Shown here piece after piece: positions 37,626-39,086 of a stretch of DNA of 64,000 nt. The stretch is from the NCBI RefSeq assembly GCF_003334305.1, contig NZ_QOWS01000003.1; one strand, 5' to 3'. Below the pieces are notes generated by a model. The model had not been told where the DNA came from. It did not search any database and was given only the letters and a program-made list of their open reading frames with translations. The position numbers and the translations under genes were made by a program. Numbering within the stretch: position 1 is the first letter of the stretch; every line of letters begins with the position of its first letter. This stretch comes from Escherichia coli. GTDB taxonomy: Bacteria; Pseudomonadota; Gammaproteobacteria; Enterobacterales; Enterobacteriaceae.

Positions 37626-37660
37626 TGTGATCCAGAGGCTGGGTGACAAACGTATTATTG

Positions 37661-37761
37661 CCTGATGCGCTTCGCTTATCAGGCCTACAGCAGGCATTGC
37701 AACTGATTGAATGCTTGAGAATTTGTAGGCCGGATAAGGCGTTTACGCCGCATCCGGCATG
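37661..37761. repeat. BIME: two inverted REP elements
   Basis: gcctgatgcgcttcgcttatcaggcctaca ... tgtaggccggataaggcgtttacgccgcatccggc. Confidence 0.65.
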
Positions 37762-37827
37762 ACCAACGATCACGTTATCAGTCATTTCAGGCTGGATGGC
37801 TCCAGCCTCGCATTAGCAAAGATGAGA

Positions 37828-38697
37828 TTATTTCGCCTGTGGTGCAGTTTTGCTGGTGGATTGAACACGTAAGTGATGCAGCGCGCGTAAGCATTGATCC
37901 TGGGTTAGCGGTTGGGCGTTATTCGCCGCTACGGTGCGAACATAGACCTGACATGGCACACCCGCGAGTTTTTTCAGTCGTGGGCTGAAATCAAGCATTC
38001 GGCGAGTGATCGCCTCTATTTCTTTACCCGGCGTTGCTTCACGCGTTTTCACCACTGCGCCGCTAAATTGTTCTTTGCCACTTTCATCTTTAAAGCGGTA
38101 AAGCACCGCCAGATAATGGTCGAACAGGTTATGTTTCCATTCCGGTTGGGAATAGGTGTCATATTCCAGATTGCCATTTTCCTGGCAGTCAACGTCATAT
38201 AACGGCAGGAAATCTAACAGTGAGGTAATACGTAATGCCAGTTCACGCATTTCCGCATTATTAATTGCATGAATGATTGCTCGCGCCAGCATTTCAATCT
38301 GCAACTCATTGACGACTAACTCACATTTGCTACCGTCATGTAGCGTTAATACGAAGGTAAGATTTTCGCCTTGATTATCGGTAAGTTCCAGCGTGTTAAC
38401 CCGACGATTAATATCGGCATTTTTAAGCTCATCAACCAGAATTTCTGGGATGTTTTCTGCCATTTTCTTAATGACTTTATCGCGAGCTTGCTCATACTGA
38501 AGGCGTGCAGCAGCATCCAGTTTATGCTTTTGATGCATACGACTTTCCAGCGCAATCAGCAGGTCGCGCAGTTCCATGACAGACATAAAGAACAACGATT
38601 CTTTATTGCGAGGTTCTTTAATTTTCAGCGCCAGTGCAATGAAATTATTACTCTTGCGAATAACACCGGTATTAACACCCTTGATGCTTATGGCCAT
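37828..38697 (-). CDS. yjeJ: Uncharacterised protein (AT-rich gene)
   Basis: 289-aa ORF, no recognisable motifs by eye; flanked by REP/BIME elements. Confidence 0.7.
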   Translation of the reverse strand: MAISIKGVNTGVIRKSNNFIALALKIKEPRNKESLFFMSVMELRDLLIALESRMHQKHKLDAAARLQYEQARDKVIKKMAENIPEILVDELKNADINRRVNTLELTDNQGENLTFVLTLHDGSKCELVVNELQIEMLARAIIHAINNAEMRELALRITSLLDFLPLYDVDCQENGNLEYDTYSQPEWKHNLFDHYLAVLYRFKDESGKEQFSGAVVKTREATPGKEIEAITRRMLDFSPRLKKLAGVPCQVYVRTVAANNAQPLTQDQCLRALHHLRVQSTSKTAPQAK

Positions 38698-38960
38698 GTA
38701 GGTTCTCCCTAACCATTTCTCAATTAAATAATTAATTTTAATTTATAAGCCAGATAAATGGGCTTGGTAGTAATAGTTGTTAAAATAACATAAATAGCCG
38801 TACTCACTCTATATAAACAGAAAAGAAAGGTTAATTATTGGTGTTGGCTATATAAAGAGTAACAACAGCAATGTATATGAATAATTAAAGGTTATGCAAC
38901 GGGCAAAGATTAAATTTCCCAGTTTAATGACAGGTTGCTGTACTTGCGTTTGTTGCTCTT

Positions 38961-39059
38961 GCCGGATGCGGCGTAAACGCCTTATCCGGCCTACAGTTCA
39001 TTGCAAATCCATTCAATTTCAATGCACAATGTAGGCCTGATAAGCGTAGCGCATCAGGC
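38961..39059. repeat. BIME: two inverted REP elements
   Basis: gccggatgcggcgtaaacgccttatccggcctaca ... tgtaggcctgataagcgtagcgcatcaggc. Confidence 0.65.
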
Positions 39060-39086
39060 TAATGTTTAACTTCCCTGTTTAATCAG

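Follow-up and report, generated by a model that had tools for sequence, protein, structure and literature searches.

We analyzed a 64,000-nucleotide stretch of Escherichia coli DNA (assembly GCF_003334305.1, contig NZ_QOWS01000003.1), referred to as the window, with a focus on yjeJ, a gene coding for a protein of the YjeJ-like family. According to the list of open reading frames (ORFs), the region is the groES-groEL-yjeI-yjeJ-epmB-efp segment of E. coli, with 100% identity to some non-K-12 strains and ~99% to K-12. Comparison with homologous loci makes it highly probable that yjeJ was once the last gene of a class II microcin secretion operon (microcins being secreted antibacterial peptides) and has since been orphaned, as judged from the linkage of its homologues to exporter genes, exact synteny, the monophyly of the solitary copies and a shared AT-rich composition. 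Our best explanation for origin and function combined, namely an operon orphan coding for an immunity-type protein, is tentative and somewhat likelier to fail than to hold. In E. coli K-12, yjeJ is among the genes that still await characterization, and its probable ancestry in a microcin operon makes the function of the gene testable.

Relationship of yjeJ to microcin-type export operons

The gap between epmB and yjeI, which holds a solitary yjeJ in E. coli, is filled by a gene block in Klebsiella pneumoniae, Leclercia, Entomohabitans and metagenomic relatives. This block contains, in order, a ToxR/CadC-like regulator, usually fimbrial genes, one to five peptide genes, an HlyD-type adaptor, an ABC exporter with C39 peptidase and a YjeJ homologue. 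In every divergent full-length family member with readable upstream context, the YjeJ homologue starts 12–30 bp after the exporter gene, and these few base pairs include a Shine-Dalgarno sequence. The flanks of the K. pneumoniae locus L064 (frdABCD-blc-sugE-ecnBA-efp-epmB-(island)-yjeI-groEL-groES) are the same as in the window, and its island comprises the regulator, a fimbrial subunit, chaperone, usher, adhesin, two peptides, adaptor, exporter and YjeJ. The same arrangement, but with five tandem peptide genes, was found in Leclercia adecarboxylata (L066), and the metagenomic locus L067 represents the minimal form, with only regulator, peptide, adaptor, exporter and YjeJ between epmB and yjeI. 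The yjeI gene adjoins YjeJ in the solitary loci as well as in the operon-bearing loci at the same site. In Budvicia, the whole block including YjeJ is located at an unrelated site.

The homologous loci combine the parts of a class II microcin cluster, i.e. a double-glycine peptide, a C39 exporter and an HlyD-type adaptor. The cluster peptides are 100–124 aa long and show a double-glycine leader (e.g. MKELTVFEMDTISGG followed by YSW, MRELSVFEMNEIAGG or MKELSVLEMDHITGG), a Gly-rich hydrophobic core and a conserved ...FVPW tail; the one to five paralogues that go with one YjeJ share an invariant core. These putative microcins have weak Pfam matches to Bacteriocin_IIc (E 0.039) and MccV (E 0.21), and in some database records they go under ‘colicin V’ or ‘Blp family class II bacteriocin’. 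The sequence evidence for regarding them as bacteriocins is thus weak, though consistent. The exporter carries the Pfam domains Peptidase_C39, ABC_membrane and ABC_tran; the NCBIfam matches of the exporter (TIGR01193, E 5.5e-104) and of the adaptor (TIGR01843, E 3e-30) both lie below the curated cut-offs. Across clusters, the identity amounts to 67–83% for the exporter, 69–78% for the adaptor, 40–56% for the peptide and 22–44% for YjeJ. Operon-linked YjeJ and the peptide family occur in broadly the same taxa. The peptide strings do not occur in the searchable literature, and no link of yjeJ, YjeJ-like or PF15922 to microcins was found in searchable papers. Whatever the function of YjeJ, the clusters point to a widespread, apparently undescribed family of Gly-rich double-glycine peptides in Klebsiella and relatives.

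In K. pneumoniae, the GC content of the block, YjeJ included, is 43–50%, compared with 55–57% in its flanks. Together with the unrelated site in Budvicia, this supports an ultimate origin of yjeJ in a horizontally moving block, and the AT-richness of the E. coli gene is explained by that of the ancestral block. The original prediction of a horizontal acquisition therefore holds for the ultimate origin of yjeJ in a mobile block, but not in the sense of a recent or variable acquisition in E. coli. In the family tree, a single clade unites the solitary copies at the epmB-yjeI site, while the operon-linked copies branch off basally. In E. coli, the AT-rich part of the spacer (38698–38951) occupies the place at which relatives carry the regulator, microcin, adaptor, exporter and, in part, fimbrial genes. 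Searches of the E. coli spacer for remnants of the island genes (regulator, fimbrial, peptide, adaptor and exporter genes) by tblastn and blastn-short returned only noise. According to this scenario, the lineage of Escherichia, Citrobacter, Kluyvera and others would have lost all of these genes but yjeJ, apparently once, and has kept yjeJ under purifying selection ever since.

Further features were observed in the operon-bearing loci. The five tandem peptide genes of Leclercia (L066, 8938–10680) are intact and lie 22–33 bp apart, and directly before them a separate hydrophilic peptide of 75 aa with the double-glycine leader MKILSTEDMQYVEGG is encoded (L066, 8516–8743); it may also be a substrate of the exporter, for instance a signalling peptide or a further bacteriocin. 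Of the three tandem peptide copies in Entomohabitans (L058, 3789–5491), two are disrupted through a frameshift or a truncation; upstream of them lies the remnant of an IS630-like transposase (L058, 3010–3183). A chaperone-usher operon (subunit, PapD-like chaperone, usher and MrkD-like adhesin) is located directly upstream of the peptide and exporter genes in L001, L003/L064, L005/L053, L057, L058 and L066. This linkage of fimbrial and microcin genes comprises at least five divergent lineages and two chromosomal sites; L067 has no fimbrial genes. Microcins of Acinetobacter baumannii were reported to promote biofilm formation (PMC13188072). An assignment of the Klebsiella fimbrial operon to kpf was dropped, since the published kpfR is co-transcribed with kpfABCD and the regulator found here lies on the opposite strand. 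The cluster regulator, a membrane-anchored winged-helix protein, is 31% identical to positions 26065–26340 (minus strand) of the window. These belong to an ORF at 24859–26397 (minus strand, 41.8% GC), which is presumably cadC, given its position near cadBA in published tables. Kosakonia radicincitans carries an additional operon-linked, very divergent YjeJ (P0164 type).

Conservation and expression of the solitary gene

The original prediction had placed yjeJ with those islets of E. coli that often represent horizontally acquired cargo. A presence/absence check across complete E. coli genomes, with the DNA of the yjeJ region without its repetitive extragenic palindromic (REP) elements as query, speaks against a variable islet: yjeJ is present as a single copy in 5426/5426 genomes, 5383 of which contain at least 80% of the query. 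A scan across species, based on one genome per species and an alignment of nine sequences, revealed the gene order efp←/epmB→yjeJ→/←yjeI←groEL in ~40 species of ~15 genera (Escherichia, Citrobacter, Pseudocitrobacter, Kluyvera, Superficieibacter, Trabulsiella, Intestinirhabdus, Yokenella, Salmonella subspecies IIIa and IIIb, Enterobacter sp., Kosakonia, Phytobacter, Pluralibacter and Atlantibacter). The ratio of nonsynonymous to synonymous substitution rates (dN/dS) is 0.04–0.13 within Escherichia and 0.07 in comparison with Citrobacter. These values, of the same order as for epmB and yjeI (dN of yjeJ itself is 2–6 times higher), indicate purifying selection, at odds with cargo that plays no role. 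Solitary copies were also found on Serratia plasmids, with no peptide or exporter gene in the neighbourhood of the plasmid copy.

Pseudogenes were identified in Salmonella enterica subsp. diarizonae (L030, 10001–10849; in-frame stop at codon 98), where they render the dN estimate unreliable, and, with frameshifts or deletions, in subsp. arizonae (L046, 10001–10833) and Atlantibacter subterranea (L056, 10001–10799). The AlphaFold database (AFDB) likewise lists many truncated YjeJ entries of Salmonella enterica, labelled ‘inner membrane protein’.

The spacer upstream of yjeJ contains a constitutive RpoD promoter (TTAACC-17-TAGAGT) reported from genomic SELEX (systematic evolution of ligands by exponential enrichment; PMC3946193). 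The hexamers were taken from that study and their positions assigned by eye in the spacer sequence; a simple consensus scan did not pick up this promoter. The resulting 5′ untranslated region measures ~100 nt, and a Shine-Dalgarno sequence (GGGAGA) stands just before the ATG. The SELEX table contains HNS entries for neighbouring spacers and none for the yjeJ spacer (PMC3946193). Furthermore, the YjeJ protein was quantified by proteomics (PMC9508795) and the gene was reported to be Nac-regulated (PMC7417836). With its promoter, its detected protein and its reported regulation by Nac, yjeJ is not evidently silenced. Altogether, core presence, synteny, low dN/dS and the expression data establish yjeJ as an old, fixed and functional gene that is selectively maintained.

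Some loci of the survey require a separate remark. In L040, L042 and L054 (Kosakonia and Phytobacter), ~2 kb (about 10856–12990) are inserted between the solitary yjeJ and yjeI. Enterobacterial yjeJ loci were also found in records named ‘Bacillus coahuilensis m4-4’ (L008, NZ_ABFU01000112.1), ‘Bacteroidales bacterium H10’ (L020, a metagenome-assembled genome) and ‘Chryseobacterium sp. 18061’ (L050). The first two are 98–99% identical to E. coli, and L050 has the same gene order, with coordinates and identities nearly those of Citrobacter sp. 18056 (L052); all three look like contaminated or mislabelled assemblies. Similarly, the AFDB assigns an epmB-yjeJ fusion to Trichuris trichiura (A0A077ZBR0) and a YjeJ protein to Thelohanellus kitauei (A0A0C2JF96).

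The YjeJ protein and its candidate functions

YjeJ matches the Pfam family PF15922 (YjeJ-like) over residues 1–283 (model positions 1–283, E 3.3e-174). In a set of 1.84 billion proteins, this small family makes up 104 clusters at 50% identity. As anticipated from inspection of the sequence, no function or recognized motif could be assigned: beyond PF15922 there was no significant match in NCBIfam (one noise match), PADLOC (0 families), PHROGs (two weak matches) or the PDB sequences, the latter also searched with the family profile. Prediction gives a soluble protein that lacks transmembrane segments (Kyte-Doolittle hydropathy over 19 residues at most 1.23) and has an isoelectric point of 8.25. 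An AlphaFold2 model based on 27 aligned sequences reached a predicted local distance difference test score (pLDDT) of 93.4 and a predicted template modelling score (pTM) of 0.88; it supersedes an earlier run on a shallow alignment of 10 sequences (pLDDT 72.7). The predicted fold is alpha/beta, with sheets of three to four strands each followed by helices. Foldseek searches of the PDB yielded nothing below E 1e-3, and only Pur-alpha entries and one PH domain exceeded a probability of 0.5, with template modelling scores (TM-scores) of about 0.2–0.4. We regard the modelled fold as a new one that weakly resembles the PUR type. In AFDB50, Foldseek retrieved mainly the YjeJ family itself and, in addition, remote proteins of Pseudomonas. 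Three of these (A0A9X4C757, A0A0G5QCN2 and A0A267KU48; ~280 aa) may be remote relatives according to the model comparison (E 1e-13 to 1e-17, 12–16% identity, TM-scores 0.35–0.55). Neither the sequence libraries nor the structural searches led to a confident assignment to a housekeeping family.

One possible explanation for the maintenance of yjeJ is that its product would be a soluble cytoplasmic self-protection component of the microcin system, which would neutralize the Gly-rich microcins or shield their shared target from inside. The solitary copy of E. coli would then represent an orphan immunity gene against Klebsiella- or Leclercia-type microcins. To such an immunity function we would give something less than an even chance. 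The YjeJ homologues are encoded in microcin clusters, a cluster being absent from the window itself, and no small hydrophobic, non-overlapping ORF of the canonical immunity type was present in the clusters examined. A search for hidden immunity ORFs returned only alternate-frame ORFs inside the Gly-rich peptide genes, which are not conserved between clusters. The minimal cluster comprises just the four parts that a class II microcin system should have, YjeJ taking the place of the immunity gene, and no small hydrophobic ORF is available even where five peptide genes lie in tandem. In addition, YjeJ diverges like a conflict protein, given its low identity across clusters compared with peptide and exporter. 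Purifying selection after the loss of peptide and exporter, together with the solitary copies on Serratia plasmids, argues for a protective role; indeed, only a protective function readily explains such long retention. An immunity role is also favoured by the conservation of the same residues (G7, N9, K25, Q133, D162, Y167, Y179, W187, F192, G213 and K217) in solitary and operon-linked copies; D162-F-L-P-L-Y-D, W187-K, F192 and K217 belong to an invariant patch. Like Cvi and McsI, which confer immunity to the class II microcins MccV and MccS, respectively (PMC9746304, PMC12219008), YjeJ belongs to a cluster with peptide, adaptor and C39 exporter. Within this cluster it is the only conserved gene outside export and diverges at least as fast as the peptide, and it outlasts the loss of the toxin gene, as orphan immunity genes do.

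Several points weigh against an operon orphan with an immunity function. The tree separating solitary and operon-linked copies was calculated by neighbour-joining with midpoint rooting and carries no support values. Retention of the solitary copy is not universal, as the pseudogenes show that some lineages have evidently relaxed the constraint on it. The validated immunity proteins of class II microcins are peptide-adjacent, at most 216 aa long and membrane-embedded, and it is from the periplasm that these microcins reportedly gain access to their targets (PMC12219008). YjeJ, in contrast, has 289 aa and no transmembrane helix, is separated from the peptide gene by adaptor and exporter, and resembles none of the validated examples in sequence or fold. 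A cautionary case is McaB of A. baumannii, a soluble cupin of 45 kDa that was first called an immunity protein before the true MccAB1 immunity protein turned out to be a hidden membrane ORF of 56 aa, McaB being needed for microcin activity (PMC13188072). Finally, the antibacterial activity of the cluster peptides, as deduced from their sequences, is putative only, and a single YjeJ has to serve as many as five distinct peptides.

Soluble immunity proteins are known for pediocin-like (class IIa) bacteriocins, where they protect from the cytoplasm against a membrane-active bacteriocin with a double-glycine leader; they are four-helix bundles of ~100 aa from Gram-positive bacteria. They show that soluble cytoplasmic protection is possible in principle, although YjeJ is a 289-aa alpha/beta protein from another phylum with no homology to this class. 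Orphan immunity genes of colicins, contact-dependent inhibition and type VI secretion systems are retained without their toxin and sometimes mobilized by plasmids, and are usually strain-variable and often arranged in tandem. Likewise, yjeJ is kept in the absence of the toxin, with some solitary copies on plasmids, but, unlike these genes, it is fixed in whole genera as a single-copy part of the core genome. It is less likely than not that YjeJ would found a new class of soluble, cytoplasmic ~33 kDa immunity proteins with a so far unseen alpha/beta fold, the universally conserved solitary copy rendering E. coli, Citrobacter and relatives intrinsically resistant to the Gly-rich microcins of Klebsiella, Leclercia and Raoultella with which they share habitats. 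An immunity function, if true, would break the search rule by which immunity genes are small, membrane-embedded and microcin-adjacent, and would explain a core-genome resistance trait between gut Enterobacteriaceae.

Among the alternatives, a role of YjeJ as an accessory factor is improbable. In this reading, YjeJ would act in the cytoplasm, keeping the hydrophobic Gly-rich precursors ready for export as a holdase or chaperone, or it would assist the C39 exporter in maturation or as an ‘activity’ protein, and the E. coli copy would have been co-opted for another task. The tight coupling to the exporter gene 12–30 bp upstream, the solubility of the protein and the single YjeJ for one to five peptide paralogues with an invariant core would fit this role, which would add a component to C39-exporter secretion. 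The precedent is again McaB, a large, soluble protein that is required for activity, was mistaken for an immunity protein and is conserved beside microcin and secretion genes (PMC13188072). However, McaB has a cupin fold and no homology to YjeJ, and its loci contain a small membrane immunity ORF, in contrast to the YjeJ clusters. Moreover, an accessory factor would be useless without peptide and exporter, yet solitary copies are under purifying selection in ~15 genera, occur on Serratia plasmids and retain the residues conserved across the family. In addition, YjeJ evolves much faster than the exporter with which it would have to dock.

About equally improbable is a function unrelated to microcins, in which case the exporter linkage would be an accident of one mobile block. 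In favour of this view, no experiment ties YjeJ to microcins, in the one study found that deletes the gene, yjeJ deletions serve as neutral linked markers in E. coli with no reported phenotype (PMC10679819), and structural relatives exist in Pseudomonas. An accident, however, is difficult to reconcile with an adjacency that persists down to 22–44% YjeJ identity, has at least two chromosomal locations and does not depend on the presence of fimbrial genes, or with the broadly matching taxonomic ranges of the peptide family and operon-linked YjeJ.

Quite unlikely is a PUR/Whirly-like binder of single-stranded nucleic acids, for example a transcriptional or post-transcriptional regulator recruited into the microcin operon. 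The match to the Pur-alpha/PUR-repeat (Whirly-like) fold is weak and partial, as the Foldseek values given above show, and has no counterpart in sequence, with no match to PUR or any other Pfam family and none in the PDB by profile. Furthermore, comparison of the structural units by hhalign showed no mutual sequence similarity and hence no internal repeats, and the charge of the protein is nearly balanced (40 K+R versus 38 D+E). The clusters already encode a winged-helix regulator, and the divergence of YjeJ would be unusually fast for a regulator.

Base composition and REP elements around yjeJ

The features of the locus and the exporter-YjeJ loci of other genomes are listed in Table 1.

Table 1 Features of the yjeJ locus in the window and exporter-linked YjeJ loci used for comparison
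Feature	Position	Strand	Remarks
yjeJ coding sequence	37828..38697	minus	289 aa, ATG start; ORF list and Pfam PF15922
yjeI (DUF4156 lipoprotein)	37272..37625	plus	Synteny anchor, convergent with yjeJ
epmB	39087..40115	minus	Upstream co-directional synteny anchor; stop at 39087
epmB-yjeJ spacer	38698-39086		Exactly 389 bp
AT-rich part of spacer	38698..38951	minus	30.3% GC; contains yjeJ promoter
Sigma-70 promoter TTAACC-17-TAGAGT	38806..38834	minus	-35 at 38834->38829, -10 at 38811->38806
BIME, two inverted REPs	37660..37767		Between convergent 3′ ends of yjeI and yjeJ
BIME, two inverted REPs	38952..39059		Just 3′ of epmB, upstream of yjeJ promoter
Exporter-YjeJ loci			P0138/L001, P0142/L003 (K. 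pneumoniae), P0132/L005 (Budvicia)
Exporter-YjeJ loci			P0144/L057, P0137/L058 (Entomohabitans), P0164/L061
Exporter-YjeJ loci			P0146/L063, P0145/L067, Leclercia L066, read-through product P0209
BIME, bacterial interspersed mosaic element.

Windowed base composition bears out the prediction that yjeJ and its upstream spacer are AT-richer than their neighbours. The GC content of yjeJ is 0.452 (mean of the 41 long ORFs of the window, 0.516 ± 0.036) and that at third codon positions 0.448 (0.564 ± 0.062), which places it third lowest among the 41 ORFs at about −1.8 standard deviations. It is chiefly the 5′ half of yjeJ that accounts for the deficit (0.421, compared with 0.483 in the 3′ half). 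The spacer reaches 0.357 as a whole and 0.303 without the BIME, the latter value being within the lowest 0.13% of 254-bp windows. Values for the neighbouring genes are 0.531 (groEL), 0.556 (yjeI) and 0.535 (epmB).

The paired REPs predicted on both sides of yjeJ were confirmed as intergenic, inverted REP pairs on each flank. Within the 64 kb, the REP consensus (up to three mismatches) has six matches compared with 0.09 expected, and four of the six flank yjeJ. Located ~1.2 kb apart, the BIMEs repeat one another in inverted orientation, with arms that are 83% (37660–37712/39007–39059) and 95% (37724–37767/38952–38995) complementary. The motif of the upstream BIME occurs only in Escherichia spacers and is absent from all non-Escherichia spacers compared, and the BIME content varies among E. 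coli strains, as judged from matches that end at query position 86, 190 or 1329. From this distribution, the REPs are later, local additions in Escherichia rather than ends of an island, so that the idea of a REP-bounded islet does not hold. In line with this, no mobility genes were present at the yjeJ locus, and the supposed boundaries do not travel with the cargo.

It is very unlikely that yjeJ is REP-bounded, H-NS-silenced acquired cargo with no current role in E. coli: the AT-rich gene and spacer, the BIMEs on both sides, the lack of an assigned function and the ultimate origin in a mobile block were correctly recognized, but a variable, decaying or non-functional gene is already contradicted by its core presence, cross-genus synteny, dN/dS well below 1, constitutive sigma-70 promoter, detected protein and reported regulation by Nac, and the Escherichia-specific, strain-variable BIMEs are no borders.

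In a published evolution experiment, whose Table 1 comprises 27 ampC amplicons and duplicons, 6 ampC amplicons begin in the yjeJ/epmB spacer, a recurrent junction, and one further begins in the yjeI/yjeJ spacer (PMC12625342). Considering these starts and the inverted arrangement of the BIME pair, the flanking REPs may act as recombination junctions. The lowest GC content among the long ORFs of the window (0.413) is found at 1630–2391 (minus strand, 253 aa), which is below that of yjeJ.

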